Virus record (IMG/VR): IMGVR_UViG_3300017917_003822
Span: 206,630 to 270,629 of that record
Length of the DNA stretch: 64,000 nt
From: a virus
Direction: 5' to 3' (one strand)
The stretch's first letter is position 1, and each line of letters opens with the position of its first letter. This document shows, one piece after another, positions 1 to 14,206 of this stretch. Below the pieces are notes generated by a model that worked only from the letters and a program-made list of their open reading frames with translations, had not been told where the DNA came from and did not search any database. The translations under genes were made by a program, and so were the position numbers.

Positions 1-692
1 GATTTTCAGAAAAACTGAGACAGTATTTTGTAACTGAGGATTTTGTAAAAGATTCCGAGTATGCTAAAGTGATAGCATGGAGAAATAAAACGGTAGCAAC
101 TATGAACAACATCATCAGAAAAACAATCTATGGAGACGTTGCGGAGGGTACTAAAATTCTGGAAGGTGAAAAACTTATCGCCAACAACCCAGTCATCGAA
201 GACAAGATTATTATATTGAATACCAATGATGAGTTTACTGTTGAGCGTTACACTATAGAAAAGGACACAGCAAGATTTGTTATTGATGATCATCCCGATG
301 CGGAACCACTGTCAGTTGAATTAAACTATTATGACACGGAGGTAAGTTACCTGAATGATGCAGATGAGGTTGTTAAGGTCTGGATTAAGATACTACATGA
401 GAGTAGTGAGGTTGAATTTCAGAAGGTTGCTAACATTCTTAAACTTCGAGCAATACAGAAGAGAGGAAAGGATAAATCTTGGCTTCATTATTATAACTTT
501 CTAAGAAGATTTGCTGATGTAAATTACGCTTATGCAATCACCGCACACAAATCCCAAGGAAGTACATATAACACAACATTCGTTCTGGAGGATGATATTG
601 ATATGAATCTGGACATAGTGGAAAGAAACAGAATCAAATATACAGCCTATACAAGAGCGAGTAGAAAGCTCTATGTTCTAAAGAGATTCTAG
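1..692 (+). CDS. SF1 helicase (Dda/RecD-like), C-terminal part; 5' end lies outside window
   Basis: Frame is open from nt 3 with no upstream stop. Motif AITAHKSQGSTYNTTFV matches helicase motif VI (HKSQG). Confidence 0.5.
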   Translation, partial: FSEKLRQYFVTEDFVKDSEYAKVIAWRNKTVATMNNIIRKTIYGDVAEGTKILEGEKLIANNPVIEDKIIILNTNDEFTVERYTIEKDTARFVIDDHPDAEPLSVELNYYDTEVSYLNDADEVVKVWIKILHESSEVEFQKVANILKLRAIQKRGKDKSWLHYYNFLRRFADVNYAYAITAHKSQGSTYNTTFVLEDDIDMNLDIVERNRIKYTAYTRASRKLYVLKRF

Positions 693-696
693 TTAT

Positions 697-727
697 TTTT
701 TTTATCCGGGATTATTTGATAGATTTG
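697..727 (+). promoter_or_regulatory. recurring promoter-like motif copy 1
   Basis: TTTTTTTT-ATCCGGG-N9-TAGATTTG, ~22 nt upstream of ATG 750. Confidence 0.4.
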
Positions 728-749
728 TAATGTTTAAAAAAATAACAAG

Positions 750-998
750 ATGGCATCAAATCATTATGACGTGAATCACGAGGTTGAAATAAAAATTAAG
801 GTTAAAATTAAGGCCCTTCATAATTATCGTGATCTTGACGAGGAAGGAAAGAAGAAAGCTATAGATTCAGTTGTTGACGATCTACCATCCATAGTGGTGC
901 ACAGTCTGAATAATCATAATAGATTTGTCAGTTATGGAGATCATCTGGGGTACAAAGATTCTGCAGATAGCTACACATTGGAAGCTGAAGAAATATAA
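750..998 (+). CDS. hypothetical protein
   Basis: 82-aa ORF directly downstream of promoter motif 697-727. Confidence 0.35.
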   Translation: MASNHYDVNHEVEIKIKVKIKALHNYRDLDEEGKKKAIDSVVDDLPSIVVHSLNNHNRFVSYGDHLGYKDSADSYTLEAEEI

Positions 999-1011
999 AA
1001 AAAAATAAACT

Positions 1012-1470
1012 ATGTTATCGGATTTATCAAGAGGAGAAGAAAATGTATTAAAAAGCATCAGAAACTCCGAAAAGTATCAGGAAAAAAAATTCTCGGACAA
1101 CTATTTTAAGTTGTCAGGAGAAATGGGAAGGGTTGTGGAGGCTGCCAAAATATACATCCTGGACAACTTCCGAAAGGTTGATGACTATTCGGATCTTTCC
1201 ATGATGCTCAGATGTGCAAACCATAAGGGAACCATTTATATTGGTAAGAAGGAGAATAAAAAAAGAAGTAAATCCAACATCATCGATAAGATGTTGTCTG
1301 AATTGAATGAGATAACGATCGAGGTTTCGTCTTTTGATGATGCAGTTTACGATTGGAGCGACGGAGATTTTTCAATCGTTTTAAATGGGGTTGGATACAA
1401 TTGGATAGATCCACTTTCCATCATCAACATAGCGGACCACATAGAAAGCAAACTAGATGAAAACAATTAG
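1012..1470 (+). CDS. hypothetical protein
   Basis: 152-aa ORF, tight spacing with neighbours. Confidence 0.4.
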   Translation: MLSDLSRGEENVLKSIRNSEKYQEKKFSDNYFKLSGEMGRVVEAAKIYILDNFRKVDDYSDLSMMLRCANHKGTIYIGKKENKKRSKSNIIDKMLSELNEITIEVSSFDDAVYDWSDGDFSIVLNGVGYNWIDPLSIINIADHIESKLDENN

Positions 1471-1798
1471 ATTCTATCGAAAAGATACCAGATGGTATGC
1501 TCATTTACCCGAGTACATTGATCAGGGCGGAACTGAGGAGGAATGTGAGATGGTCTCTGGTGCCGACGATTGGTTGGATCGCATTTCAAATTACTCAGAT
1601 TCTGTGGTTCTGAATTTATCGGACAAGGACCCTCTATCAGAAAAAATAGTTCTCTACGAGAAGGATGAATTTGGTGCAACATATGTGGCACATAGCTATA
1701 AAGAGGAGGATATCAACCAGATCATGTGGCTTTGTCCGGTGACTGTTTATGTTTTTGGTTGCTATCCTGAAGTTATTTATTACAGTATTAAAAGATGA
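1457..1798 (+). CDS. hypothetical protein
   Basis: 113-aa ORF, ATGA overlap with the next gene. Confidence 0.35.
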   Translation: MKTIRFYRKDTRWYAHLPEYIDQGGTEEECEMVSGADDWLDRISNYSDSVVLNLSDKDPLSEKIVLYEKDEFGATYVAHSYKEEDINQIMWLCPVTVYVFGCYPEVIYYSIKR

Positions 1799-2043
1799 GA
1801 ATAAAAGCAATTTACAGAAAAAACCTGAAAATGAGCGAGGGGAAGCTCGCCGCACAGATAGCCCACGCAGTTAAGAACCTAGGAGAAACCCCGAGGGATT
1901 GCGATATAGTCGTTCTAAAGGTTTCAGATAAAAAGTTTGACGAGATGGTTTCGGAGCATGATTGTTACGTTCAGATAGACAAGGGTCTAACTGAGGTAGA
2001 ATCAGGAACTAGAACAGCGGCAGCCTGGATAGAAATAAAATAA
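1795..2043 (+). CDS. minimal PTH2-family (archaeal/eukaryotic type) peptidyl-tRNA hydrolase
   Basis: NLKMSEGKLAAQIAHAV, IVVLKV and DKGLTEVESGTRTAAAW align with PTH2 motifs (DLKMGKGKxAAQxxHA ... DAGLTQxxPGTxTVLAIGP). Only 82 aa. Confidence 0.55.
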   Translation: MRIKAIYRKNLKMSEGKLAAQIAHAVKNLGETPRDCDIVVLKVSDKKFDEMVSEHDCYVQIDKGLTEVESGTRTAAAWIEIK

Positions 2044-2055
2044 CCAACAAGAGAA

Positions 2056-2364
2056 ATGAGCATATTGTCAAAGATTTTTGGGACGAAAAAAGAGGCCGAA
2101 GGTGAAATTAAAATCGAGATACCAGAGGAGGTAATCTTCAAGAAAAAAGAAGTTTCCGAATGGGTAGAATTCAAGAAACAAAAACCTCCCCACGAAGTTG
2201 TTTTAGCTGCCTGTGATACGTATGATTGCGGATGGGTGATGGATACCGCTTGGTGGGATGTTAATAAAAAATGTTGGAGAACCACGGGAGCGATTAAATC
2301 AAAAAGAGCACATTTAGAATACACCCATTGGAGAAGACTTCCAGTTTCACCAGATGGAAATTAA
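2056..2364 (+). CDS. hypothetical protein
   Basis: 102-aa ORF. Confidence 0.35.
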   Translation: MSILSKIFGTKKEAEGEIKIEIPEEVIFKKKEVSEWVEFKKQKPPHEVVLAACDTYDCGWVMDTAWWDVNKKCWRTTGAIKSKRAHLEYTHWRRLPVSPDGN

Positions 2365-2388
2365 TAACATAATAAAGGAGACAAGATC

Positions 2389-2688
2389 ATGGATTTATCA
2401 ACTTACAAATTTCCGGAAGTAACCGGTGCAGACCTAGCATTTCCGACATTCGACACAACAAAGGAGCTAGTAGATGAAGCAAAAAGAAGGAACCCTGTGA
2501 AGGGTATGAAAAAGTTTTCCGAACTATTCTACAGCGGAGGAGAAATAAAACTAAAGGAAGACGTAAAGGGCACATGGAAAGAAAACGCCTATCTTTATGC
2601 AAGAGCACTGATGGGGAGCTGGGCACCTAAACACGAGAACAAGGAGTTGGTTGTAGGCATGATTTTCGAAGAATGTCTAGTTCTTTAG
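2389..2688 (+). CDS. hypothetical protein
   Basis: 99-aa ORF. Confidence 0.35.
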   Translation: MDLSTYKFPEVTGADLAFPTFDTTKELVDEAKRRNPVKGMKKFSELFYSGGEIKLKEDVKGTWKENAYLYARALMGSWAPKHENKELVVGMIFEECLVL

Positions 2689-2692
2689 TGGT

Positions 2693-3481
2693 ATGAGCGA
2701 GAGTAAATCTCTATTTAAGGCCTTTATCAGGGTGGTAAAATCCATCTCGGAAAGGGATAATTATTTCCTTGGTGGATTTGGTGCGGTTGAGGTTGTGAGA
2801 GAACCTCTAATAGAGGCCAAAGACAAATCTGAGGTTAAGAAGATATTACTGGAGAGATATCCCCAATTTTTTACCAACGGTAAAGTCCACGAAAGAGAAA
2901 CTAAGGATAATGCTCAATTTTTCTATGTTGTAATATACCCTCTATACGAATGGGAGAAAAAACAAATCGAAGAGGGAGAATGGATATGTGAAAGTTGTGG
3001 ACATATTCATGAAAATCAATATCTGTCAAAACCAAGAATTAACGAGAGGTTATTTGGAACAGATAAGCTCTTCTGTAGGAGTGACGAGGATCTTTGTCTG
3101 GAGAATTACAAGAAGGAATATTATAAGGATGTAGATCTTCCAGATGATCTAGCATACATCAAAAAAGATAGTCCAAATTACATCTATAAATGTACGGAGA
3201 AAGCAACAGGTAAAAGCTACATAGGTAAAACTAGAAATGCTCCATTCTTTAGATGGTGGAATCACCTAACGCACTCAAGCAGTCCCTTTGGAATTTATCT
3301 AAGACAAACCAAATTGAGTGATTGGACTTTCGAAGTTCTTGAGGAGCTGCCAGGAAATATTGATGAGAGCGAAGTTTTTAGAATAGAATCTGAGTACATA
3401 ATGAAATACGATAGCATTCAGAATGGCTATAATACGGTAATTAGTAATAAGAAGGTTCTGGCTGATAACAACGATAACTAA
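2693..3481 (+). CDS. GIY-YIG nuclease domain protein (possible free-standing homing endonuclease) with N-terminal CxxC region
   Basis: C-terminal YIYKCTEKATGKSYIGKT...R..W.H...E...NGYN is the GIY-YIG signature. CESCGH lies upstream. Confidence 0.6.
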   Translation: MSESKSLFKAFIRVVKSISERDNYFLGGFGAVEVVREPLIEAKDKSEVKKILLERYPQFFTNGKVHERETKDNAQFFYVVIYPLYEWEKKQIEEGEWICESCGHIHENQYLSKPRINERLFGTDKLFCRSDEDLCLENYKKEYYKDVDLPDDLAYIKKDSPNYIYKCTEKATGKSYIGKTRNAPFFRWWNHLTHSSSPFGIYLRQTKLSDWTFEVLEELPGNIDESEVFRIESEYIMKYDSIQNGYNTVISNKKVLADNNDN

Positions 3482-3532
3482 CTTTTTGTAGCTTGTTTCA
3501 GTTGCAAATTATTAGCTAAACATGTAAAAATT

Positions 3533-3724
3533 ATGGATAAGTGGAATTACGATAAAAGAGTTAGAGAATTATCTCAAAAAATTGAACAGTATAAAATACA
3601 CGCTAAACGTGAAATTGAAAACAATAAAGTTTGTCATCCAAGCAAAGTGAGAAATAATTCTCAACGATATTTGGAAATCTGTAAACAAAGGTATAAGGAT
3701 TTTACAGGTGAGGACTATGAATAA
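3533..3724 (+). CDS. hypothetical protein (AT-rich island)
   Basis: 63-aa ORF in the compositionally distinct 3.5-4.9 kb island. Confidence 0.3.
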   Translation: MDKWNYDKRVRELSQKIEQYKIHAKREIENNKVCHPSKVRNNSQRYLEICKQRYKDFTGEDYE

Positions 3725-3799
3725 TTTTTATTGCTTATAACGTTCCCACGCTTGGCGAAGTGGCGGATGTAAAGCACTAAATTTTTAATTAAACAAATT

Positions 3800-4018
3800 A
3801 TGAAAAAGAACAAAACTCGAAATATAGACAAACAACTTCAAAAATTGTTATATGAACAATATGGTGAAGAATACACTCAATGGTATATGAAAACTTTTGA
3901 TGTTAAATTATATTTTGATGGAGCGGAAACATCAGATAGAGGTTATTTAACAGATAGAGAGTTTGACGAATGGAAAGAAGAAAAATGGAAACAATTTTTG
4001 TCCAAGTATGGTTATTAA
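3800..4018 (+). CDS. hypothetical protein (AT-rich island)
   Basis: 72-aa ORF preceded by the TATAACGTT...CTAAATTT motif. Confidence 0.3.
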   Translation: MKKNKTRNIDKQLQKLLYEQYGEEYTQWYMKTFDVKLYFDGAETSDRGYLTDREFDEWKEEKWKQFLSKYGY

Positions 4019-4114
4019 AAATTTATTATATATAACGTTTTCCGTGTATAATAAGTGGCGTACACGATAAACCAAGCCACTAAATTTAAAAATTAACTTT
4101 AAAATACAAAACAA

Positions 4115-4399
4115 ATGAAAAATTTAAAACTTAGAAGCCATTTTTTATACACGTTGTTATGTGTAGTTTTTTTAACATCTTGTAATTGTGATAAACAAAA
4201 AAAAGAAATTATTATTGAAGAAAATAATCATCAAGAAGATTATTACATTTACAATGATACATTACAAAATAATGCAATTCAAGAAAAAAATAATAGTAGC
4301 GGTGTAGGTATCACAACAAGTAGTAAATTAGGTGTAGAAGTAACAGAAGGTGTTTATATTAATTCAAGCGGTGAGTTAGAATTAGGATTTGGTTTGTAA
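4115..4399 (+). CDS. putative lipoprotein
   Basis: N-terminus MKNLKLRSHFLYTLLCVVFLTSC: signal peptide plus lipobox Cys, Bacteroidetes style. Confidence 0.45.
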   Translation: MKNLKLRSHFLYTLLCVVFLTSCNCDKQKKEIIIEENNHQEDYYIYNDTLQNNAIQEKNNSSGVGITTSSKLGVEVTEGVYINSSGELELGFGL

Positions 4400-4474
4400 A
4401 ATTACACATAACGGTTTGCGTATTGGCGTTGTTGCCAATACTGATGTTAAATTGAAAAACTAAATTTGAAATAT

Positions 4475-4723
4475 ATGGAAAATGACAATATGAAACAAGA
4501 AGGCAATAACGCTAATACGCTGTTATCGGCAGTTGTTGTTCATCCACATCCGATAATTGAAATGCAAATAAAGAACTTTAAAAAAGATGAAGTTGGCTAC
4601 ATCGCTGAATGTATTTTATACAACAAAGAATTTAAAGAAGTAGAAAGCTCATTCTTTATTGACGAATATAGAGCCAACGAAATCATTGATTTAATGCAGA
4701 CGTTTTTGAACAATTGCCGATAA
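4475..4723 (+). CDS. hypothetical protein
   Basis: Track start 4466 is TTG. First ATG at 4475 gives MENDNMKQ... Confidence 0.3.
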
Positions 4724-4724
4724 A

Positions 4725-4907
4725 AAATATATTGATAATACTTCATCTATACACACTTTAAGACATTCATCATTTACAAATTTACTAGAATCTGGAACAG
4801 ATTTAAGGATAATTCAAAAAATTGCGGGACATTCAAGTTCCAAAACAACAGAAATCTACACCCATGTTTCGAATAATATCCTAAATAAAGTAAAACTTCC
4901 GATTTAA
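4725..4907 (+). pseudogene. remnant of tyrosine recombinase/integrase (C-terminal box II only, no start codon)
   Basis: Frame translates ...[52 protein letters not shown]. This is the HxxR...Y catalytic C-terminus of XerC/D-like integrases. No ATG in frame, and the catalytic N-terminal ~250 aa is absent. Confidence 0.6.
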
Positions 4908-4939
4908 TTTTTTTATGTCGAGATAATTAATTACTTTTG
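4908..4939 (+). promoter_or_regulatory. promoter-like motif copy 2
   Basis: TTTTTTT-ATGTCGAG-N9-TACTTTTG, upstream of 4972. Confidence 0.4.
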
Positions 4940-4971
4940 TTTTCTTAATAATCCACTATAAATCATAAAAA

Positions 4972-5541
4972 ATGGGACTAGATATCACGGTTTATAAACC
5001 AATTAAAGTAAAGGAGGAGGATTTTCAAAAGATTGAGGATTTTTTAAACATCGAAGACCACCCGGAACTTTCAGTGTTTTCTGATTTTATATTCGAGAAA
5101 GAAAACGAATACTATGATCTTGAAAACGAAGCCAGAGATCTGGGTTACAATCTTGAGGATTTAATCTGGACCGGAACATCTTTTGGACCGGAATCTGCTT
5201 ACACTTTCAAAGATAGTGATGGAAATGATGTTAAAATTATCATCACAAAAACAATCAAGAAAATTGATAAGTGTATTGCCATCGAGGAGGTTGGGTATCA
5301 GAGAAAAGGTGCGAATAAAAAATTCTATGAAGATAAGATATGGGACAGTCCATGTGTTATAGATCAGAAGACACTAAACAATCACTGGGAGACTTACTTT
5401 TCAAACCAAACCCCCGAGAGCAAAGGTGGATGGGGAAGCGGGGTTGAATATGAACAGGATGATGAGACCATGAGAAAAAACTTTAAGAAAAATATCATAG
5501 ATAAATTCATCGAGGGGGAAACTTTTGTCATATATCATTAG
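4972..5541 (+). CDS. hypothetical protein
   Basis: 189-aa ORF downstream of promoter motif 4908-4939. Confidence 0.4.
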   Translation: MGLDITVYKPIKVKEEDFQKIEDFLNIEDHPELSVFSDFIFEKENEYYDLENEARDLGYNLEDLIWTGTSFGPESAYTFKDSDGNDVKIIITKTIKKIDKCIAIEEVGYQRKGANKKFYEDKIWDSPCVIDQKTLNNHWETYFSNQTPESKGGWGSGVEYEQDDETMRKNFKKNIIDKFIEGETFVIYH

Positions 5542-5550
5542 GAGAGCTTT

Positions 5551-5775
5551 ATGAAAAATGAAACTATTATAAAAAAGGTTTTTAAGGAATTTGGTGAGAA
5601 CTTTAATGACTTAACAGGTAGTCAATTATTAGCTATTGATGAGTGTATGTTATTAGCAAGACAAGACAAAGCCAATAGAGTAATTAAAGAAATTGAAAAT
5701 CGCACTAATAAAGTGGGTTGTTTTTGGGCTGATGAGGAAAGAACGAAAAAAATAATCCATGGATACGGGAATTAA
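5551..5775 (+). CDS. hypothetical protein
   Basis: 74-aa ORF. Confidence 0.35.
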   Translation: MKNETIIKKVFKEFGENFNDLTGSQLLAIDECMLLARQDKANRVIKEIENRTNKVGCFWADEERTKKIIHGYGN

Positions 5776-5783
5776 GTAATATT

Positions 5784-6053
5784 ATGAGAGTTGGAGATTT
5801 ATATGAAATGGGATTCTTTCATAGAGATGGCAATTATGCAACATCCAAATGGATAGTTAAAGATGATGGATGGGGTGAAAATAGTTCAGCAACCATACAA
5901 TATAGACCAGGAAATGGGATCGTTTTGAATAGCGGAGACGATGTAGATTTTAGCAGATTTTCCCTCTGTATTTATGGTAATTCATCATGTCCCAGTATAC
6001 CAGTAAAAATAAGATCCAAGGAGGACCTGATTCAGCTGGAGAGATTCTTCTAA
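5784..6053 (+). CDS. hypothetical protein
   Basis: 89-aa ORF. Confidence 0.35.
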   Translation: MRVGDLYEMGFFHRDGNYATSKWIVKDDGWGENSSATIQYRPGNGIVLNSGDDVDFSRFSLCIYGNSSCPSIPVKIRSKEDLIQLERFF

Positions 6054-6065
6054 AAAAAATATGCT

Positions 6066-6530
6066 ATGGAAAGAAAAACATCAAAAGAATGGTATGATTT
6101 AATACCGGATGAATATGGATTAAAAATACTAGATCCAGATGGATGGGATAGAGAAAATTTCCAGATTTCTTTTTATGAGGAACTGATAACAAGGGAGGAG
6201 TTCAAAAATAGAATATCACTTTCCACGATTCAATGTAAAAAAATTAATTTCCTCGATGATGTCACATATAAGGGGAGTTCTCTAAATGGGCACACCATAG
6301 AAGACATTAAGGCAGAAATTTCAAAGTCCACAGGTTACGATCCTTCAAATATTAGATTATTTGGTTCAAGAATAACGGGTGGTTGGAACGATCATTCGGA
6401 TCTTGATGTCGCTATAATGGACGAAAATAAAGTTCATTTGTGTTTATCCAGTGTAAACTATCTTGGATTAAACTGTGAGATCCGATTTGTTGAAGATTTT
6501 GAGGTCTCCTGGTTAAAGGATTCAGTTTAA
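6066..6530 (+). CDS. minimal nucleotidyltransferase (Pol-beta superfamily) domain protein
   Basis: LFGSRITGGWNDHSDLDVAI matches the hG[GS]x(9-13)DhD nucleotidyltransferase motif. Confidence 0.5.
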   Translation: MERKTSKEWYDLIPDEYGLKILDPDGWDRENFQISFYEELITREEFKNRISLSTIQCKKINFLDDVTYKGSSLNGHTIEDIKAEISKSTGYDPSNIRLFGSRITGGWNDHSDLDVAIMDENKVHLCLSSVNYLGLNCEIRFVEDFEVSWLKDSV

Positions 6531-6552
6531 TTAACAATAAACCACAAATTTA

Positions 6553-6585
6553 ATTTTTTTATCCCGAAATAATTTACTATGTTTG
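6553..6585 (+). promoter_or_regulatory. promoter-like motif copy 3
   Basis: TTTTTTT-ATCCCGA-N10-TATGTTTG, upstream of rnlA. Confidence 0.4.
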
Positions 6586-6603
6586 CGTCTATAATCCTTA
6601 GAG

Positions 6604-7683
6604 ATGAAATACGACATAAACATATTAAATAGCTATATTGATAATGGGCTGCTGGAAAAAAACCCACATCCAACATTACCTCTCGATATCTACAACTACT
6701 CCCGGGAGTGCCAATTTTCACGTCATTGGGATGAGATAACCCTCAACATGAGGGGCACAGTCTTAGACAGAGATGGAAATGTAGTAGCAAGAACATTTTC
6801 AAAATTCTTCAATCTGGAAGAACATCAACCCGAAGAAATTCCAAATGAATCATTTGACGTTTTTGAAAAAATGGATGGTTCACTGGGTATTTTATTTAAT
6901 TACAACGATCAGTGGATATTTGCAACTAAGGGATCATTCTCGTCAGATCAATCAATCAGAGGTAAGGAAATTTTGGAGAAGTACGACTATCAAAGTCTAG
7001 CGAAAGATTGCACATATTTATTCGAGATCATATATCCAGAAAATAGAATTGTCGTCAGCTACGATTTCGAAGATCTAGTACTATTAGCAATCATCAATAA
7101 CGAGGATGGCTATGAATATGACATACACTCGGAGGAGGCGCTTTCTGATGTACTGGATATCAAGGGTTTTAGAATTGTTAAAAAATACCATGGAGTTCAG
7201 GACTATAAGGAGCTTAAGAAAATCATAGATAACAATGCAGAGGGATTCGTCATCAGATTCAAATCTGGTTTCAGAATGAAGATCAAAGGGGAAGAGTATG
7301 TTAGACTCCATCGGCTTCTAACAAACTTCTCGAACATTGACATCTGGGAACTTTTGAAGAATGGGGAGGATCTTGGTAATTTTCTGGACAGAGTTCCTGA
7401 TGAATTTGATCTCTGGGTCAAGAATATTATCTCAGATCTAAGAAGACAGTACCTGGTAATCGAGGAATCAGCACATGAGGTCCATTCATCATTCTTTGTT
7501 GCGAGACCAGATTTTTCGAGAGAAGCGGGAAAGAAAGAATATGCTCTGTGGGTTAAAGAACAAGAAAAGAATTTGCAAGGTATATTATTTTGTCTGTATG
7601 ACGAGAAAAGGTATTCGGATCACATTTGGAAAATGATAAGACCGAAATACCAAAAACCATTTTGGAACAAAATTGAGGATTGA
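6604..7683 (+). CDS. rnlA: ATP-dependent RNA ligase, T4 RnlA (Rnl1) family
   Basis: MRGTVLDRDGNVVARTFSKFFNLEE and FEKMDGSLGILF...ATKGSFSSDQ align with T4 Rnl1 (ECRGIMFEMDGE...EKFFNLNE; TKEDGSL...SKGSIKSEQ). Motif I is KxDGS, motif IV is EGFVIR. Confidence 0.8.
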   Translation: MKYDINILNSYIDNGLLEKNPHPTLPLDIYNYSRECQFSRHWDEITLNMRGTVLDRDGNVVARTFSKFFNLEEHQPEEIPNESFDVFEKMDGSLGILFNYNDQWIFATKGSFSSDQSIRGKEILEKYDYQSLAKDCTYLFEIIYPENRIVVSYDFEDLVLLAIINNEDGYEYDIHSEEALSDVLDIKGFRIVKKYHGVQDYKELKKIIDNNAEGFVIRFKSGFRMKIKGEEYVRLHRLLTNFSNIDIWELLKNGEDLGNFLDRVPDEFDLWVKNIISDLRRQYLVIEESAHEVHSSFFVARPDFSREAGKKEYALWVKEQEKNLQGILFCLYDEKRYSDHIWKMIRPKYQKPFWNKIED

Positions 7684-8326
7684 TATGAAAATTATATTAG
7701 AAAAAAACCAGAATTTATATTTCACGAGTGATACACACTATAATCACTCCAATATTTGCCGGGGAACGTCAAATTGGCCAGGCGGAAGAGGAACCCGAAA
7801 TTTCCATTCACTTGGAGAGATGAACGATGCCATAGTCTCTGGGATCAATTCTATTGTAGGTCCTGACGATTATCTTGTTCATATGGGAGATTGGAGCTTT
7901 GGTGGATTTGAATCTATCATAGAATTCAGAAAAAGAATAGCATGTAAGAACATTATTCTTTTCCTCGGGAATCACGATCATCATATCAGAAACAATAAGG
8001 AAGGTGTTCAAGGATACTTTAGAAAAGTTTCAAGCTACGATGTACTGGATATTAGAAGACCGGAAGGAAAGGAAACTGCTAAATATCAATTTGTATGTTG
8101 TCACTTTCCCATAGCAAGTTGGGACGGCATGAACAAGAAGGTTCCACATCTACATGGTCACGTTCACTTGCCTCCAAATTTAAAAATTCACGAGGGGAGA
8201 GCAATGGACGTTGGAGTAGATGGAAACAATCTACAACCCTACAGCTTAAATGAAATATTAAAGATCATGAAGGATCGTCCAATTAAACATTTGACTTTAC
8301 CAAAAGACCATCACACAGAGGAATAG
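7673..8326 (+). CDS. calcineurin-like metallophosphoesterase (candidate RNA-end healing phosphatase)
   Basis: SDTHYNH, HMGDWSFGG and GNHDHH are metallophosphoesterase motifs. Position between ligase and kinase. Confidence 0.65.
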   Translation: MRIDMKIILEKNQNLYFTSDTHYNHSNICRGTSNWPGGRGTRNFHSLGEMNDAIVSGINSIVGPDDYLVHMGDWSFGGFESIIEFRKRIACKNIILFLGNHDHHIRNNKEGVQGYFRKVSSYDVLDIRRPEGKETAKYQFVCCHFPIASWDGMNKKVPHLHGHVHLPPNLKIHEGRAMDVGVDGNNLQPYSLNEILKIMKDRPIKHLTLPKDHHTEE

Positions 8327-8470
8327 TATGGAAGTAAATGTGGCACAAAGGAGGTTTTGTATCTGGAGATTAGAATTGTGGTGGATCGCTTTTGATTTGC
8401 ACCAATTTCATCCGGAAGGTAGGGTTCATTTAAGAGGTAACTGGTTCTGGAGAATATAAAAACAAGAGAA

Positions 8471-8644
8471 ATGATAACACAAGAAATTTTAAACACTTTT
8501 GTCTTCGATACAATCGGGGGAGAAAAATTTGGGGTCAATGATCCAATAGCTCATGATGAGATTATTGGATACTATCCATCGAGAGAGGAAGCAGAAAAAG
8601 CTTTCATTGAGTACGTAGAAAAAGAAGGTATAATATTCGAATAA
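8471..8644 (+). CDS. small hypothetical protein (57 aa, below ORF-track cutoff)
   Basis: ATG at 8471. Stop overlaps the next start (TAATG). MITQEILNTFVFDTIGGEKFG... Confidence 0.25.
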   Translation: MITQEILNTFVFDTIGGEKFGVNDPIAHDEIIGYYPSREEAEKAFIEYVEKEGIIFE

Positions 8645-9090
8645 TGGAAAATTCAAGAACTGGATACAGTATAATTAAACCAACCATGTTTCTCATAAGA
8701 GGAATCCCAGGATCTGGTAAATCGACATTTGCAAATCACATCTGGAACGAGTATGCAATCTGCGAAGCAGACAAATACTTCATAGACAAGGAAACTGGTG
8801 AATATAAATTTGATGCCTCTAAGCTGAAGGATGCGCATGAATGGTGCAGAAATGAAGTTGAGAACAGAATGAAAGAACATCATCTTAATCCACAGTACTA
8901 TCCTGAAATAGCAGTGTCCAATACATTCACCCAAGAATGGGAAATGCAAAATTATCTGGATCTTGCTGATAAGTATGGTTATCAGGTTGTTTCTTTGATA
9001 GTGGAGAACCGACACGGAGGATCGAACGTTCACAACGTTCCGGAAGAAACCTTGGATAGAATGAGACAAAGATTTGAAATTAAACTATAA
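8644..9090 (+). CDS. P-loop polynucleotide 5'-kinase-like protein (T4 Pnk kinase-domain-like)
   Basis: Walker A GIPGSGKST. Overall pattern resembles the T4 Pnk kinase domain (ISDTNL...; ...DRMRQRF). Confidence 0.6.
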   Translation: MENSRTGYSIIKPTMFLIRGIPGSGKSTFANHIWNEYAICEADKYFIDKETGEYKFDASKLKDAHEWCRNEVENRMKEHHLNPQYYPEIAVSNTFTQEWEMQNYLDLADKYGYQVVSLIVENRHGGSNVHNVPEETLDRMRQRFEIKL

Positions 9091-9096
9091 CAACCA

Positions 9097-9843
9097 ATGG
9101 AGGAATTAACATTATCGGAAGCTAAAGAAAAATACAGAGTCAGAAAGGCTTTCGACATCTACATAGAGGACAAACTTCATACAGTTTATGATATAGATGG
9201 ATATGAACATAAAAATGGTGAATGGAACGGTACACCAACAACGTGGTGGTTGGATTACAGCAGGGATGTAGTTAGAGGCGAGGTTACTCCGGAGAGAAAT
9301 CTGATTCCATATGTTGATAAGGGAAATAATAGGATCTGCTGGGAAATTCGTTTCAAACAGAGAAATTATATGAAGCACAAATGGGACGAATGGAGCTTGA
9401 GGAACTCTGGAACCTGCGAGATATTTGCAAATGGCAAAAAGGTCTACAGCTTTGGTACATTTGATGTTTCATACGCTCTAAGTAAGGCACAATATCTGAT
9501 GGTTCAGTTAAGAGAACATCCGTATGATTTTCTCAATCCGGAGAATGAGCAAGATAGAAAGATATGGTACTATGGTCTACCGGCTAAGGTTAAGCCTAGC
9601 GATTATGCACCAGGAGAAATTAGTATACTCCCAGATTACACTGGAATTGAACCAGAAAGATGGTGGGATGAATACGAGAAAAGAAGAAAACCTGTGGATT
9701 TGAAATCGGATAGAGAACTCAGCGAGTGGGAAAAACAAGACATTGAATCTGACGAGCAGGATTTTAATGAGACTAGGAGCTACGGCAGAATAAATCACGG
9801 CGATGCACTCTGGGACGGAATGATAAATTGGTTTAGAAACTAA
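9097..9843 (+). CDS. hypothetical protein
   Basis: 248-aa ORF. Confidence 0.4.
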   Translation: MEELTLSEAKEKYRVRKAFDIYIEDKLHTVYDIDGYEHKNGEWNGTPTTWWLDYSRDVVRGEVTPERNLIPYVDKGNNRICWEIRFKQRNYMKHKWDEWSLRNSGTCEIFANGKKVYSFGTFDVSYALSKAQYLMVQLREHPYDFLNPENEQDRKIWYYGLPAKVKPSDYAPGEISILPDYTGIEPERWWDEYEKRRKPVDLKSDRELSEWEKQDIESDEQDFNETRSYGRINHGDALWDGMINWFRN

Positions 9844-9849
9844 TAAGGA

Positions 9850-10233
9850 ATGACAACATCTCTTATCATCAGAGGCGAAGTTTTGGGAGCATATGATCTT
9901 ACTTTTGAAGAATTTAAGACATCGGAGCTCAGAACAGTTTTTTTCGAGGAGATCGAAAGAACAATCAGCATGATATATCAGAGATACGCTTTTGAACCAA
10001 GAAGTCCAAAAGTTTTAGCAAAGATACTCGAGGATTCGAGGGAGATTCTATTTCCAGGTAAACCCAATGTTAGATTAACATTTAGCAAGGACGTAAATAA
10101 AGGAAGACTCGATTTGAATGTCATCATGAACTCGATGAAAATAGTAATCAGGAAGCAAGAGCTTTCCATAGTTGAATATCTGATCCACTTGGCAGCAATT
10201 AAGTGTGGCATCGCTTTTATAAAAATAAAATAA
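9850..10233 (+). CDS. hypothetical protein
   Basis: 127-aa ORF. Confidence 0.35.
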   Translation: MTTSLIIRGEVLGAYDLTFEEFKTSELRTVFFEEIERTISMIYQRYAFEPRSPKVLAKILEDSREILFPGKPNVRLTFSKDVNKGRLDLNVIMNSMKIVIRKQELSIVEYLIHLAAIKCGIAFIKIK

Positions 10234-10238
10234 TAAAC

Positions 10239-10649
10239 ATGGAATATAATTTATTTCTAGACGACTTCAGGCACCCATATGATTGTGTGCCATATATGCC
10301 GAATCGTGAAATTTACGCGAAATGGAAATGGGAGATAGTTAGAAACTATGACGAGTTTGTCGAGTATATTACGAAAAATGGTCTTCCTACTCACGTCTCA
10401 TTCGATCACGATCTTGCTGATGAGCATTATGACGATAGCATGTATGGAGGTCAGGCAGACTATGATAGGATGTATCAGGAATTCAAGGAAAAGACTGGAC
10501 TTGACTGTGCAAAATGGTTAGTTGATTACTGTATGGACAACAACCAGAAGCTTCCTGAATATTCTGTTCACTCGATGAATCCTGCTGGTGGAAAAAACAT
10601 TCTGGAGTACCTTAACAACTTTAAAAAATTTCAGGAAGATGGAAAATAA
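10239..10649 (+). CDS. hypothetical protein with conserved SFDHDL motif
   Basis: Track start 10203 is GTG. First ATG at 10239 gives MEYNLFLDDFRHP... Confidence 0.4.
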   Translation: MEYNLFLDDFRHPYDCVPYMPNREIYAKWKWEIVRNYDEFVEYITKNGLPTHVSFDHDLADEHYDDSMYGGQADYDRMYQEFKEKTGLDCAKWLVDYCMDNNQKLPEYSVHSMNPAGGKNILEYLNNFKKFQEDGK

Positions 10650-11046
10650 GAAACCTCTCAGAACACTATCAAAAGAAGATCTCATTAATAGCTTCAACCA
10701 CGGTCTGACTGTTGGAGGACTTAAAAAATTCATCGAGGAGAACAACGTTCCGGATGATGCCAAAGTTATGGTTCAGAGAGTTCATGACCACTACTTTGAA
10801 AATAATAATTGGGGAGTTTATCTAAAGGAGGGCTATTGGTATTATTCGGCAGAAAAAACAAATGAAAATATGCTCGAGGAGATCGAGAGAAGAAACAAAG
10901 GGCTTGAACCTGAATATGATCTAGAAGATCCAAAATCTTTAATGGTAGAGCTCGGAGATGAACTTAAGGAACAATATTATCCAGCTTGGTCATGTGTTAG
11001 ATACAGAGATGACCAGGATTTATTATTTATAGACTCACATTATTAA
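10639..11046 (+). CDS. hypothetical protein
   Basis: In-frame ATG at 10639 (MENKKPL) overlaps the upstream stop by 11 nt. The track extension overlaps the previous gene. Confidence 0.4.
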   Translation: MENKKPLRTLSKEDLINSFNHGLTVGGLKKFIEENNVPDDAKVMVQRVHDHYFENNNWGVYLKEGYWYYSAEKTNENMLEEIERRNKGLEPEYDLEDPKSLMVELGDELKEQYYPAWSCVRYRDDQDLLFIDSHY

Positions 11047-11060
11047 CAAAAAATAGAAAT

Positions 11061-11729
11061 ATGAACAACTCAGCAGAATTTAGAAAATACGCTTTAAGTC
11101 AGGGTATAAGCTCGCTAACACTGGACTATCACGATAAACAAATCCAGGCATCAATGACTCCGATGATCCTTGAGGAAAGGGAAATGAGAGTCACCCAGAT
11201 GACTGTTTTTGATAGATTGATGATGGATAGAATCCTTTGGGTAGCTGGTCCGGTTAACGATAGAATGTCAACCATAGTTCAGGCTCAACTTATGTTCCTT
11301 GATTCCGTTGATGATAGGGATATTACTATGCACATTGACTCCCCCGGTGGGTCTGTTAAATCTGGTCTGAGTATGGTTGATGTTATGTCGTATATTAAAT
11401 CGGATATCCGAACAGTTAACACAGGGATGGCAGCTTCGATGGGATCAATTTTACTTGGAGCAGGAACTAAAGGAAAAAGATCGTCGTTAAGATTTAGTAA
11501 AGTTATGTTGCACCAATCCAGCGGTGGATTTAGTGGAAACATCCAGGATGCAGAAATCGACATGATAGAATGGAAAAAATACAATGAGATCCTGTTTGAG
11601 TTATTGGGTGAATATTGTGACAAACCAGCAGAACAAGTAATGCAAGATGCGACTAGGGATTTTTGGTTGAGTGCAGATGATGCTGTTGCTTATGGCATTA
11701 TCGACGAGGTAATCAGATCTAAAAAATAA
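11061..11729 (+). CDS. clpP: ClpP-family serine protease (candidate prohead protease)
   Basis: Catalytic triad context is GMAASMGS (Ser), MLHQ (His), DATRDFWLSA (Asp). Overall ClpP alignment: DSPGGSV..., GAGTKGKR. Confidence 0.85.
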   Translation: MNNSAEFRKYALSQGISSLTLDYHDKQIQASMTPMILEEREMRVTQMTVFDRLMMDRILWVAGPVNDRMSTIVQAQLMFLDSVDDRDITMHIDSPGGSVKSGLSMVDVMSYIKSDIRTVNTGMAASMGSILLGAGTKGKRSSLRFSKVMLHQSSGGFSGNIQDAEIDMIEWKKYNEILFELLGEYCDKPAEQVMQDATRDFWLSADDAVAYGIIDEVIRSKK

Positions 11730-11738
11730 TATCGGGAT

Positions 11739-11948
11739 ATGGCCAAGGGAAACTATATAATTCACGAGGAGCTCAACGACAAACAGCAGAAAATGTACGA
11801 AGAATGGATCGCTCACATTAAAGCGATCTATGGTGAGTATGGTACATTTACCTGGAAGGTTACTCCGACAGGTATTGGAAGCGGAATATCCGTTTATAGT
11901 CACAAAACAAAAACTGAATTGGATCTAACAGATGTCGATAGCTGGTAA
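11739..11948 (+). CDS. hypothetical protein
   Basis: 69-aa ORF. Confidence 0.35.
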   Translation: MAKGNYIIHEELNDKQQKMYEEWIAHIKAIYGEYGTFTWKVTPTGIGSGISVYSHKTKTELDLTDVDSW

Positions 11949-12267
11949 CAAGGAAAAAGAATTATGTGAATGCGGGAAGATGGCCGTTTGGTGCTACCTT
12001 CCAGGTTACAGAGATGGTAGCAGTCCATATTCCTGTGAAGATTGCGTAAATCGAGGTTGTGACTGTAATCACCGATATGTTGACCCTAACTCATATCATC
12101 CTCCACTCGATGAACCGGATCTTCCAGATGGTGAGGAGGGGGTTGATTGGACTTGGGTAGATGAAGATAAGAAAGCATGGACATATATCGACGAAAAGGG
12201 AAGACAGTATCCCTGCTGTGAATATCATCATGATCCCGAGGGGTTCGACGTTTACGAGGAAGACTAA
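11932..12267 (+). CDS. cysteine-rich hypothetical protein
   Basis: CECG...CEDC...CDCNH...CCEYHH suggest metal-binding. Confidence 0.35.
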   Translation: MSIAGNKEKELCECGKMAVWCYLPGYRDGSSPYSCEDCVNRGCDCNHRYVDPNSYHPPLDEPDLPDGEEGVDWTWVDEDKKAWTYIDEKGRQYPCCEYHHDPEGFDVYEED

Positions 12268-12280
12268 AAAAAGATAATAT

Positions 12281-12571
12281 ATGGTAGAATTAAAAGAAAA
12301 GAAAGAAATTTTGATCTGTGATTGCCACTCGACAGAACACCAGGTCGTGATATATTACAGTGAGGATGAGTTTGAGGATGGTAGAAAATACCCCATGTGT
12401 TATTTTCATATTCACTTAAACAAATTACCATTTCTGGAGAGACTGAGGTATGCGATCAAATACATATTCGGACGGAAGTCGAGATATGGGGCATTCGATG
12501 AATTTATCATTAACCCATCCGATGCTGATAAGTTACAGGATCTGGTTAATTATTTAAAACAAAAAGAATGA
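12281..12571 (+). CDS. hypothetical protein
   Basis: 96-aa ORF. Confidence 0.35.
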   Translation: MVELKEKKEILICDCHSTEHQVVIYYSEDEFEDGRKYPMCYFHIHLNKLPFLERLRYAIKYIFGRKSRYGAFDEFIINPSDADKLQDLVNYLKQKE

Positions 12572-12795
12572 TCTGGAAAAGTATCGAAGAAGAAACTCCG
12601 GTTGCCTATGAAAGTGGTAACTGGGACGGACTAAGAAGCGAAGAAGTTCTGGTGTCTGATAAAGAAGGTAAATTGAACATAGCCCGAATGTATAAGGGCA
12701 CAATGGACGGATCTCACTTTAGACAATTCTATGACCATCGAGATTTTGAGATACCTGAAGTAACTCACTGGTGTAAAATTCCCATGCTACTTTAG
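12568..12795 (+). CDS. hypothetical protein
   Basis: 75-aa ORF. Confidence 0.3.
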   Translation: MIWKSIEEETPVAYESGNWDGLRSEEVLVSDKEGKLNIARMYKGTMDGSHFRQFYDHRDFEIPEVTHWCKIPMLL

Positions 12796-12826
12796 TGCAT
12801 GGGAATTTTTTTTTGATATATAGTTC

Positions 12827-14143: not shown

Positions 14144-14174
14144 ATTCTATATATCGTAAAATTTTTTGAATTAA

Positions 14175-14206
14175 TTTTTTTAATTCGAGAGAATGCCCTA
14201 TATTTG
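14175..14206 (+). promoter_or_regulatory. promoter-like motif copy 4
   Basis: TTTTTTT-AATTCGAG-N9-TATATTTG. Confidence 0.4.

Follow-up and report, generated by a model that had tools for sequence, protein, structure and literature searches.

The C-terminal end of a tyrosine recombinase, detached from the rest of its gene, lies in the 64,000-nt stretch of viral DNA analysed here (the window), and raises the question of what kind of element it once belonged to. An initial annotation had proposed the scar of a deleted or decayed integrative element of the temperate type, or an attachment-site remnant. By itself the fragment is a pseudogene remnant of modest interest. From the comparison with related loci set out below, we consider it probable that it is the inactive remnant of a recombinase that, in related large phages, serves an integron-like gene-cassette platform.

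The recombinase fragment and its parent family

On the plus strand, the frame spanning 4708-4907 is open, closes with a stop codon at 4905-4907 and contains no in-frame ATG, GTG or TTG, which is why the fragment is missing from the program-made list of ORFs. Translation of 4725-4910 gives 60 protein letters matching the frame quoted by the initial annotation, and homology to relatives begins three bases further 5', at 4722 (KKYID...). The fragment matches PF00589 in a Pfam profile search (E 1.1e-13, profile positions 123-170 of 172) and is 74-93% identical to full-length relatives by tblastn (E 1e-25 to 1e-31), confirming a truncated C-terminal tail of the Xer/IntI type with Bacteroidota-like affinities, as initially read from the sequence. 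The HxxR motif, the second His and the Tyr nucleophile are kept, while Arg I, the Lys and the N-terminal domain (PF13495) are lacking, which sets the fragment apart from an active tyrosine recombinase. With a parent of ~266 aa, about 205 residues are missing, fewer than the ~250 first estimated.

The gene might be split rather than truncated, a full recombinase being restored by an intron, an intein-like insertion or a distant exon, and in one relative (L001) the gene is indeed found in two frames, as a result of a single-base frameshift. However, seven N-terminal queries run by tblastn (E up to 10) gave nothing credible within the 64 kb, with matches scattered over the window and a best E of 0.06, and the DNA left of the break is homologous to the end of a cassette in another relative, L040. 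A split gene is scarcely credible, and the truncation stands. A programmed frameshift leading from ORF 4475-4723 into the fragment was also considered and rejected, the offset being +1 across a stop codon, with no recognizable signal.

Related loci were fetched from large uncultured phages (82 loci, cited here by L numbers) by a search that was seeded with the C-terminus, and that among remnants could therefore find only C-terminal ones. The parent is a Xer-like tyrosine recombinase of 266 aa, present full length and in one frame in about 70 of the 82 loci. A first protein search had returned only ORFs of 52-114 aa, a list skewed to short entries, and the widespread C-terminal 'mini-integrase' that it suggested was dropped once tblastn on the fetched loci had recovered mostly full-length genes. 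The close family (60-93% identity to the reference recombinase) was found in large phage contigs only. Comparison with 50,697 deposited phage records gave no DNA match to it and no close protein match; the nearest proteins there, at 32-39% identity over their full length, come from Cellulophaga phage Ingeline and Polaribacter phages Freya and Leef. Likewise, no DNA match to deposited phages was obtained for window positions 1-20000 (near mode) or 4400-5000 (distant mode). The RNA ligase of the window (6604-7683) has its best matches in Streptomyces phages, at 36% identity, and gives no clue to the host. The hosts of the carrier phages are probably Bacteroidota.

The domain architecture of the parent (PF13495 plus PF00589) is that of Xer recombinases, and its best profile and structure matches are XerA (NF040815, 171-177 bits; PDB 4A8E, aligned in one piece) and XerC/D. 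All equivalog cut-offs are missed (XerA 171-177 against 220, XerC 138-139 against 335, XerD 137-141 against 330), as are those of the IntI profiles (TIGR02249, 155-157 bits in two stretches against 265; PRK15417, 98-108 against 435). The alignment to VchIntIA (2A3V) breaks into two, and query residues 174-207 face IntI 176-257, which indicates that ~48 residues, corresponding to the IntI-specific insertion between patch III and box II, are absent from the phage enzyme.

Truncated copies are also present in L002, L022, L032, L037 and L045, with junctions at other places than that of the window; the truncation points are all different (aa 105, 169, 172, 182, 197 and 206). That C-terminal parts alone are kept at several other phage loci might suggest that the 61-residue tail is a functional small protein under selection, for example a dominant-negative partner of an intact recombinase, and its 44-aa core is indeed identical to full-length relatives despite saturated synonymous divergence (dN/dS 0.02-0.13). 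A recent deletion explains the low dN/dS equally well, and this ratio together with the unchanged core leads us to consider the truncation recent. Moreover, the tail lacks a start codon, lies in frame +1 to the upstream ORF with no recognizable frameshift signal, and belongs to a set of remnants whose truncation point differs case by case, so that there is no conserved mini-protein, and which a C-terminus-seeded search would have returned in any case. We therefore find a functional small protein very improbable. The 28-mer spanning the junction has no exact match in viral or metagenome contigs, so this truncated allele is seen nowhere else.

Hairpin sites and cassettes upstream of the intact genes

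Intact loci follow one order on one strand: a variable number of cassettes, an attI-like site TAAC-TATTATATATA, about 55 nt, and the recombinase gene. Each cassette (median ~500 bp) is made of a structured site plus one small ORF, and 157 of 161 cassette ORFs are oriented towards the recombinase gene. The sites consist of a TAAC, a 5-nt spacer, a stem of 17-23 bp, a loop, the second arm, 1-3 nt and a GTTA. A scan of 832 kb gave 164 of them, every one on the strand of the recombinase gene and within 0-5.5 kb of its upstream side; the opposite strand and shuffled sequence gave none. Watson-Crick pairs occupy 90.7% of stem cells, a percentage inflated by the filter with which the sites were gathered (TAAC/GTTA plus a stem), whereas the diversity of pair types and the biases in strand and position are unaffected by it. 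Every stem position shows all four pair types, compensatory changes occur in 18 of 25 pairs, and the covariation score reaches 0.553, against 0.158 when shuffled and 0.06-0.12 when slid. The inner stem has no obvious extrahelical bases. G.T pairs number 250 against 9 A.C pairs, which indicates that one strand folds, an asymmetry that suits an RNA hairpin equally with folded single-stranded DNA. All 164 sites thus share the attributes of attC-type sites, namely an imperfect palindrome, the AAC/GTT triplets, an unpaired spacer, and conservation of structure over sequence. In sites of the long class, the hairpin loop also contains the start codon of an ORF and a putative promoter-like box resembling TAnnTTTG.

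The cassettes end in ~12 nt that pair with the bases right after their own GTTA. Over 111 cassettes, the 12 nt following the GTTA of one site and the 12 nt preceding the TAAC of the next are complementary at 7.5 positions on average, with a mode of 10-11, against 4.2 of 12 in same-site and random-pair controls. Cassettes common to different arrays stop at TAAC +3/4, and one of them occurs, at 99% identity, in two arrays carried by the same 246-kb contig; cassette bodies are nearly all unique (109 bodies, six small families), hence the few direct sightings of one cassette in two contexts. Of 68 loci, 57 have the attI-like motif at 30-110 nt from the gene on its upstream side, mostly at 40-80 nt, against 20 matches elsewhere in 1.66 Mb. 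In at least eight groups of loci, the 300 nt on the right side of the attI-like TAAC are 90-100% identical and the left side is unrelated, the break falling 0-2 nt from TAAC. Taken together, the complementary flanks, the divergence at the attI-like site and the ends of the cassettes indicate, as far as sequence comparison goes, site-specific exchange at TAAC, and the attI-like site would be where cassettes are inserted.

Alternatively, the hairpin repeats might act on transcripts, as promoter, terminator or RNA stem-loop units similar to the PeSL (promoter-early stem-loop) cassettes of T4-type phages, and be shuffled by homologous recombination; the recombinase would then be a mere neighbour and the fragment an ordinary pseudogene. 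Such units would account for the G.T (G.U) pairs on the transcribed strand, for the start codons and the TAAATTTG box found in loops, and for the hypervariability of the region among related phages. They would not account for the strict confinement of the sites to the upstream side of a co-oriented recombinase gene, nor for breaks next to the attI-like TAAC, which has no hairpin on its left, and flank complementarity across hundreds of bases is what a circular intermediate predicts. An Rfam search of window positions 3000-5600 (E up to 1) matched no family. We regard this alternative as unlikely.

The same loci bear on the initial proposal of a temperate-type scar, left by a prophage-style integrase module, or of an att remnant that bears a second copy of an integrase 3' end. 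A truncated tyrosine recombinase with the catalytic motifs of the integrase family would be expected in both cases, and the best deposited-phage matches are named 'integrase' (e.g. Cellulophaga phage Ingeline and Polaribacter phage Freya, 34-39%). Yet the parent family is found at the 3' end of hairpin-repeat cassette arrays in large phages and was not seen in a lysogeny module beside a tRNA or att site; the ~70 intact loci have a cassette array upstream and varied, unrelated phage genes downstream, and two genomes, L043 and L078, each carry two recombinase copies with arrays. The makeup of a temperate integration module (attP, tRNA 3' end, lysogeny genes) is not what we recognized in a non-exhaustive survey, since the only tRNA in the window (52487-52565) is 47 kb from the fragment and an array lies upstream in 82 loci. 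In addition, the window contains no intact gene whose 3' end could be copied, and the left side of its junction is a cassette end rather than host or att sequence. Nor is it established that an integrase restores the 3' end of its own gene at an att site, as the initial proposal presumed: what is known to be regenerated there is the target gene, such as a tRNA. Both forms of the proposal are therefore distinctly improbable.

The array remnant in the window

The fragment lies in a low-GC module, flanked by a GIY-YIG-like gene and by ORF 4972-5541, for which neither an exact-product look-up nor a related-locus search gave a match. Its parts are as follows.

3482-4971, plus strand: low-GC module with the array remnant (GC 0.20-0.32 against ~0.36 in the flanks; composition profile)
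3738-3766, plus strand: degenerate recombination site #1 (TAAC 3738-3741, 5-nt spacer, 5' arm CACGCTTGGCGAAGTGGCGG at 3747-3766)
3800-4018, plus strand: cassette ORF of 72 aa after site #1, no known domain
4033-4159, plus strand: recombination site #2, attC-like, long class, 127 nt (inverted repeat, 88% complementary; stem scan)
4115-4399, plus strand: cassette A ORF of 94 aa, starting in the loop of site #2, with a lipoprotein-signal-like N-terminus
4160-4171, plus strand: R' extension of cassette A, TGTGTAGTTTTT (11/12 complementary to 4397-4408, G.T at position 7)
4397-4408, plus strand: R'' extension of cassette A, AAAAATTACACA, at the end of the cassette
4409-4525, plus strand: recombination site #3, attC-like, 117 nt (inverted repeat, 89% complementary; stem scan)
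4475-4723, plus strand: cassette B ORF of 82 aa, with its start in the site #3 loop and a stop codon, TAA, that doubles as the TAA of the terminal core
4526-4537, plus strand: R' extension of cassette B, TCGGCAGTTGTT (11/12 complementary to 4709-4720, G.T at position 7)
4709-4723, plus strand: R'' extension of cassette B plus TAA, AACAATTGCCGA-TAA, which is the deletion junction (by comparison with L040 and full-length genes)
4722-4907, plus strand: array recombinase remnant, codons 206-266 plus stop (PF00589, tblastn)

Site #1 retains the motif ATAACG..CTAAATTT (3737-3784) and lacks a 3' arm matching its 5' arm, which has an intact partner in L008 (at 1523); neither the stem scan nor covariance model R1 detected it, and the 72-aa ORF that follows has no homologue in the 82 loci. 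Site #2 has its TAAC at 4033-4036, arms at 4043-4059 and 4137-4153, and GTTA at 4156-4159, with the ATG of the next ORF (4115) in the loop. The codons ..YTLLCVVF of cassette A, which recur in L001, come from the 3' stem arm and GTTA of this site. Provided that crossover takes place at TAAC, cassette A corresponds to 4033-4408. Site #3 (TAAC 4409-4412, arms 4418-4436 and 4502-4520, GTTA 4522-4525) carries in its loop the TAAATTTG box at 4461-4468 and an ATG at 4475, is 91% identical to L040 4787-4913, and gave the one significant match of the covariance model in 64 kb (4411-4523, E 6e-4). Some 20 N-terminal residues of cassette B recur in ORFs of L040, L031, L059 and L046 that are unrelated to it over the remainder of their sequence, since the recombination site itself codes for this stretch. 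Flank complementarity is 11/12 for both cassettes, and the reconstituted circular junction of cassette B folds at -32.5 kcal/mol, against -19.6 as found and -24.2 for the other strand.

The composite site motif occurs three times in the 64 kb, always within 3737-4467, against 0.01 expected. ATAACG...ACTAAATTT was also considered as a general phage promoter and discarded, its only three occurrences in 64 kb all lying beside the fragment. BLASTP showed no homology of window ORF 4466-4723 to the ORF that precedes the L001 recombinase, and the similarity of their DNA is that of the shared recombination site. The small ORF next to the fragment, which the initial annotation had described as unrelated, does adjoin it, but it is the last cassette ORF of the array and ends in a stop codon, TAA (4721-4723), that belongs to a recombination-site core. 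What remains in the window is a decayed copy: a cut recombinase, two or three cassettes, and three sites, of which one is broken and two are intact.

At the junction, TAAC has lost its C, and nothing is left of recombinase codons 1-205 or of what would be expected to precede them, the rest of the array or the attI-like site. The corresponding place is intact in L040, which reads AATTGCCGATAAC to the left of the break point and GGTTTGCG to its right, and the left side of the window junction is homologous to the L040 cassette end. Full-length recombinase genes read ..TATAA followed by AAAATATATTGAT at the homologous position. The deletion would have run from the core of the last cassette, between TAA and C, to TAA-A-AAATATAT within the recombinase gene, taking out the attI-like site and 205 codons. 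The recombinase itself could well be responsible, through action at a secondary site, although we would not go so far as to favour this origin: the junction is supported by a 4-nt overlap (ATAA), and the 7/12 match to the attI-like site after TAA is expected about once per gene by chance. With its recombinase truncated, the array of the window would be frozen, unless an intact copy lies beyond the window.

An integron-like platform and its closest counterparts

These data suggest a mechanism in which the recombinase would bind the folded sense strand, with the outer TAAC/GTTA stem and the inner stem acting as its two arms across the unpaired spacer, and would catalyse strand exchange at or inside TAAC. 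Cassettes would then leave as circles and re-enter at the attI-like site beside the gene, and the boxes in the loops might serve as their promoters. In the window this platform would have decayed, one site having lost an arm. On balance, we lean towards the broader view that large uncultured phages, probably of Bacteroidota, possess an undescribed integron-like platform, in which self-expressed cassettes are captured and shuffled by a 266-aa Xer-like recombinase devoid of the IntI insertion, acting on an attI-like site and on long hairpins (TAAC...GTTA) folded from the sense strand, with distant chromosomal versions of opposite ORF orientation in Flavobacterium and other bacteria, the window holding a decayed example whose recombinase was maybe cut by itself at a secondary site. 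If this is true, hairpin-based cassette capture would not be unique to IntI, and would represent a general route by which lytic phages gain accessory genes.

Similarities to integrons are extensive. In both systems, a tyrosine recombinase of the Xer/IntI branch lies beside a primary site, which in the phages is the attI-like site adjoining the gene, with its presumed role in insertion; the cassettes are small (~0.5 kb), mostly of a single ORF, and their cargo, which includes DNA methyltransferases, is highly diverse and for the most part unknown. Conservation of the sites lies in structure rather than sequence: an unpaired spacer separates the outer stem (R) from the inner stem (L), and AAC...GTT triplets are conserved; only one strand folds well, and array sites are chimeric through crossover at the R box, as the matching flanks of the phage cassettes suggest. 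When the opposite strand is read, the phage loci take the canonical order of gene, attI and array, and the strand that folds is the integron 'bottom' strand. Arrays with a broken or absent integrase are also common among integrons (CALINs, truncated intI).

The differences are equally clear. The phage enzyme lacks the ~48-aa IntI-specific insertion (I2 helix), which is thought to be needed for attC hairpin recognition, so that its absence counts against the platform. Phage stems, of ~16 bp plus 17-23 bp, are far longer, and their spacer is of unequal length on the two sides (5 nt against 1-3 nt). Whereas integron ORFs point away from the integrase and are promoterless, being expressed from the common Pc promoter, phage cassette ORFs face the recombinase, and the long-class phage site holds an ORF start and a promoter-like box in its loop and encodes the first ~20 residues. 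The absence of the IntI insertion and the orientation of the ORFs lead us to call the platform integron-like rather than an integron.

Integrons are regarded as a bacterial invention dependent on a single enzyme lineage, IntI, whose extra domain is held to account for single-stranded hairpin recognition. The phage loci point to a parallel system with the logic of integrons (a primary site by the gene, structure-defined hairpins, chimeric boundaries, diverse small cargo), in which a simpler Xer-like enzyme does the work and large lytic-looking phages are the carriers. Were it confirmed, this system would supply a mechanism by which the 'ORFan' regions of big phages come to be hypervariable, and would offer both a new natural experiment on the evolution of hairpin recognition by tyrosine recombinases and a compact recombinase-and-site pair for engineering; the cassette ORFs would become candidates for functions in phage-host conflict. 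It would also provide a search model, arrays of TAAC-stem-loop-stem-GTTA, that are missed by current integron finders, which report almost no integrons in Bacteroidetes. Canonical integrons are indeed almost absent from Bacteroidetes (PMC9024848), and classical IntI/attC have been found in phages (PMC9892861). In the part of the literature that we covered, including IntegronFinder surveys, we found no description matching the phage platform, and an earlier one may exist.

Concerning Xer recombinases (XerC/D, XerA, XerH), the phage enzyme has its best sequence matches among them and shares their two-domain architecture. However, its scores fall under the curated cut-offs, its sites are hairpins and not 28-bp dif-like duplexes, none of which was identified at the phage recombinase loci, and the gene is tied to a cassette array instead of chromosome dimer resolution or integration of a whole element. 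CTX-phi (IMEX) demonstrates that a Xer-type enzyme can act on a folded single-stranded hairpin. The pdif modules of Acinetobacter plasmids resemble the phage platform in being small gene modules bounded by Xer sites and found in varied contexts; they depend on the XerC/D of the host, their sites are short duplexes in inverted orientation, and we know of no hairpin site, array beside a dedicated recombinase gene or attI-like site in them.

The PeSL cassettes are likewise found in hypervariable regions of large lytic phages, as small accessory ORFs that each follow a conserved stem-loop and promoter unit. Their shuffling is attributed to homologous recombination without a dedicated recombinase, in contrast to the phage platform, which has its own tyrosine recombinase, an attI-like site, breaks at a fixed tetranucleotide and complementary cassette flanks. 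Moreover, the phage sites occur only upstream of the recombinase gene, and in the window only within 3737-4525 of the 64 kb. As for the integrases of Ingeline, Freya and Leef, they are the nearest deposited proteins and are annotated as such, yet they are distant when compared as proteins.

The initial annotation had suggested looking in related phages for an intact integrase or an empty site at the same locus. In the nearest relatives, L012 and L021, the place occupied in the window by 1783-6599 is empty, and the intact array and recombinase are found ~1 kb away, between homologues of window ORFs 69-692 and 1012-1470. Direct repeats around the whole unit of array and recombinase were considered as a general att site and set aside, since downstream sequences differ among most loci. 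In both L021 and the window, the motif TTTTTTTAYYYCGRRAGAT is repeated, following the homologue of ORF 69-692 as well as the recombinase gene.

The recombinase fragment and its parent protein

On the + strand, positions 4708-4907 form an open frame lacking ATG, GTG or TTG, which aligns with positions 123-170 of the 172 in the Pfam Phage_integrase profile (E 1.1e-13). The encoded fragment therefore carries no catalytic residues before the HxxR motif, but retains HxxR itself, the second His and the Tyr nucleophile. Such a start-less integrase tail, abutted by a small ORF (4475-4723, in a different frame), had been described in the initial annotation and is indeed present; however, homology begins at 4722 rather than 4725, and about 205 residues are missing instead of ~250. 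The N-terminal part of the recombinase is absent from the 64-kb window.

Among the matches listed, protein search returned only short C-terminal ORFs (77-93% identity). With a 65-aa query, the best 120 of 530 matches were all 50-114 aa, and equally identical full-length relatives exist in viral contigs. The candidate step of the search seems to favour short proteins, and such lists would be no sign that fragments outnumber intact genes. In one 633-kb phage-like contig (locus L001), the short ORF is the second half of a 266-aa gene split by a single frameshift. A scan of IMG/VR gave 215 relatives, from which 80 loci were kept; in about 70 of these, on contigs of at most 349 kb, a single frame encodes the full-length ~266-aa protein.

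The parent protein has domains PF13495 and PF00589. Its best curated matches are archaeal-type XerA (171-177 bits, cut-off 220) and the integron integrase model TIGR02249, the latter in two stretches (155-157 bits, cut-off 265). Because its alignment is unbroken with XerA (4A8E) but in two pieces with VchIntIA (2A3V), skipping about 48 IntI residues, the protein represents a simple Xer-like recombinase without the IntI-specific insertion. We found no relative above 39% identity in deposited phages (the nearest being Cellulophaga phage Ingeline and Polaribacter phage Freya), and no full-length match above about 50% in genomes of bacterial species, where matches are mostly from Bacteroidota.

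Hairpin sites upstream of the recombinase gene

The small ORFs directly upstream of the fragment are separated by ATAACG...ACTAAATTT repeats. The composite motif has three copies in the 64 kb, all within 3737-4467, against 0.01 expected. A repeat finder pairs each repeat, as the 5' half of a long hairpin, with a 3' half ~20 codons inside the next ORF.

Array features upstream of the recombinase fragment (window positions, strand)
3738-3766, +, site 1, 3' arm lost
4033-4159, +, site 2, intact
4043-4059 with 4137-4153, +, hairpin arms of site 2 (inverted repeat)
4409-4525, +, site 3, intact
4418-4436 with 4502-4520, +, hairpin arms of site 3 (inverted repeat)
4033-4408, +, cassette A, flanks 11/12 complementary
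4156-4170 with 4398-4412, +, post-GTTA/pre-TAAC complement of cassette A (inverted repeat)
4409-4723, +, cassette B, flanks 11/12 complementary
4523-4537 with 4709-4723, +, post-GTTA/pre-TAAC complement of cassette B (inverted repeat)

We scanned both strands of 82 loci around recombinase relatives in large uncultured phages, plus the window (832 kb), for the pattern TAAC, 4-7 nt, stem, loop, stem, 0-3 nt, GTTA. All 164 sites found lie on the recombinase strand, 0-5.5 kb upstream of the gene, and none occurs on the opposite strand or in shuffled sequence. Their lengths form two classes, about 85-90 nt and about 120-129 nt.

The sites are structures, and on one strand. Inner stems are 90.7% Watson-Crick, a percentage inflated by the stem filter, which leaves pair-type diversity unaffected: all four pair types occur at nearly each position. 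Inner-stem mismatches comprise 250 G.T versus 9 A.C, a bias that is real, since the scan penalizes all mismatches equally. For an alignment of 58 short-class sites, RNAalifold gave 25 pairs, 18 with compensatory changes. The covariation score is 0.553, versus 0.158 for shuffles (0/500 reaching 0.553) and 0.06-0.12 for slid partners. No Rfam family matches the sites, and a covariance model built from them has its only significant match in the window at 4411-4523. A near-perfect 20-bp hairpin at 31377-31430, flanked by TAACG...TATTA and weakly matched by the model (E 0.18), looks more like a terminator than a cassette site.

Probable recombination at TAAC and truncation of the gene

Three independent comparative signatures suggest that the hairpins are recombination sites. 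The 12 nt following GTTA of one site and the 12 nt preceding TAAC of the next are complementary at a mean of 7.5/12 positions (mode 10-11, n=111), versus 4.2 for both same-site flanks and random pairs, and with a constant G.T at position 7. This is predicted if a circular cassette was cut at a single point of a long hairpin, and complementary cassette flanks are likewise the hallmark of integron arrays. Of 68 full-length loci, 57 carry an attI-like motif, TAAC followed by TATTATATATA(C), upstream of the recombinase gene at a distance of 30-110 nt (mostly 40-80); only 20 matches occur elsewhere in 1.66 Mb. In at least eight locus groups (e.g. L052/L054/L058 and L067/L068), the 300 nt on the right side of this TAAC are 90-100% identical, the left sides are unrelated, and divergence sets in 0-2 nt from TAAC. 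Finally, cassettes common to different arrays (L018-L021, L020-L023, L046-L050) are 96-99% identical and stop at TAAC +3/4, as does the segment common to two arrays, L043 and L078, on one contig. This 246-kb contig (IMGVR_UViG_3300025030_000041) has two recombinase and array loci carrying the same 234-nt cassette at 99% identity in different array positions (L043 3319-3552, L078 5098-5331), next to the attI-like site in L078.

The attI-like site directly follows the last cassette with no hairpin between, so that a cassette is best read as TAAC-hairpin-GTTA-ORF-R'' extension (the last being its 3' flank), each therefore containing a complete gene. The reconstituted circular junction of cassette B folds at -32.5 kcal/mol, versus -19.6 as found and -24.2 on the opposite strand.

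Cassette B ends in AACAATTGCCGA-TAA, directly followed by AAAATATATTGAT..., that is, recombinase codon 206 onward. The intact counterpart of this end in L040 reads AATTGCCGATAAC|GGTTTGCG, and the homologous position in full-length genes is TATAA|AAAATATATTGAT; from these counterparts, the deletion extends from the TAA|C core of the last site as far as TAA-A-AAATATAT in the gene. In most family members the latter agrees with the attI-like motif in 6-8 of 12 positions, and the deletion might thus be a secondary-site reaction by the recombinase itself. This is only suggestive, because the overlap is 4 nt and chance alone would produce such a motif about once per gene. In five other truncated copies, the junctions are at different points. 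GC is low in the array module (0.20-0.32).

Between fragment and relatives dN/dS is 0.02-0.13, as it is among intact genes (median 0.055), and a 44-aa core is unchanged, which indicates that the truncation is young compared with the divergence sampled. In the window, the recombinase of an integron-like cassette array survives only as this inactive, recently truncated remnant. The earlier reading of the fragment as a truncated recombinase holds, whereas the parent belonged to a cassette array and the locus is unlikely to be the scar of an integrative element or attachment site.

Relation to integrons, cargo and genomic context

Comparative evidence supports the phage cassette-array system well, making its existence probable, and it appears to be a new variation on the integron principle. 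Read on the opposite strand, its layout is the canonical one: the gene points away and is followed by attI, which ends in G|TTA, and by cassettes whose site is at the distal end. The well-folding strand corresponds to the integron bottom strand. Unlike in integrons, the enzyme lacks the IntI insertion, cassette ORFs face the recombinase gene, and the hairpin loop of long-class sites holds a start codon and a TAnnTTTG-like box. Unrelated proteins consequently have common site-encoded N-termini, such as MENDNLK.ESNNAN.LL, MSKEMREQIDRVKNFKQF and MKDLKHIRRFNESEENLNISDV. Across L003-L082, unrelated cassette proteins have common N-terminal stretches of ~20 residues (MSKEMREQIDRVKNFKQF..., MELRKFIATTIREYLNEQ..., MKDLKHIRRFNESEENLNISDV...); a site alignment places the ENLNISDV and NNAN.LL stretches in the hairpin loop plus 3' arm.

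The median cassette unit is 501 bp and the median ORF 88 aa; 157 of 161 cassette ORFs are co-oriented with the recombinase, and nearly every cassette body is unique. Among 57 larger cargo proteins checked, we identified two DNA methyltransferases, two DUF carriers, and single cases of an RNA ligase, an Rv2179c-like exoribonuclease and an Arr-like ADP-ribosyltransferase; the remainder had no match.

IntegronFinder has detected classical integron components in a few phages (PMC9892861), and canonical integrons are almost absent from Bacteroidetes in the IntegronFinder 2.0 survey (PMC9024848). We found no published description resembling this system in a full-text literature covered in part, which is absence of evidence only. 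TAAC-stem-loop-stem-GTTA sites also occur in 17 of 80 loci of bacterial homologues (41-50% identity), including L157, L120, L140 (Desulfitobacterium), L095, L106, L117, L133, L135 and L160, and, except in L083, are located downstream of the gene on the other strand. In the one locus examined, L157 (Flavobacterium saccharophilum DSM 1811, 5776-12436), every site follows an antisense-reading ORF, and the recombinase has 347 aa with an N-terminal extension. In these loci the system may exist in a chromosomal form that is closer to an integron.

The nearest relatives of the window (L012, L021 and L005) have flanking genes in common with it (68-77% nucleotide identity) and lack all of 1783-6599; their intact array and gene lie between homologues of ORFs 69-692 and 1012-1470, so that the remnant sits elsewhere than their array. 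A motif of a T-run plus small palindrome (TTTTTTTAYYYCGRRAGATTTATTTA) follows both the gene preceding the array and the recombinase gene in L021 (2806-2835 and 6186-6215), and the ORF 69-692 homologue and the remnant in the window (693-725 and 4908-4935). This motif might act as a shared terminator, or else as a recombination hotspot through which the whole array moves. Directly upstream of the array remnant, 2693-3481 encodes a GIY-YIG homing-endonuclease-like protein (weak Pfam match, E 6e-4); L001 has a clear GIY-YIG/NUMOD gene at the same position (3190-3906), with no homology between the two detectable by tblastx.

For the most part, the window corresponds to a region of accessory genes in a large phage, and most of its ORFs are on the + strand. 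It encodes two different RNA ligases, Rnl1-like (6604-7683) and PHA02142-type (16418-17560), an SPFH/Band-7 protein (35797-37239) and an NAD-dependent epimerase (17902-18936). ARAGORN predicts a 79-nt tRNA-Tyr at 52487-52565 with anticodon ATA, where GTA is normal; the call may be wrong, or the tRNA may be a modified or decoding-variant one.
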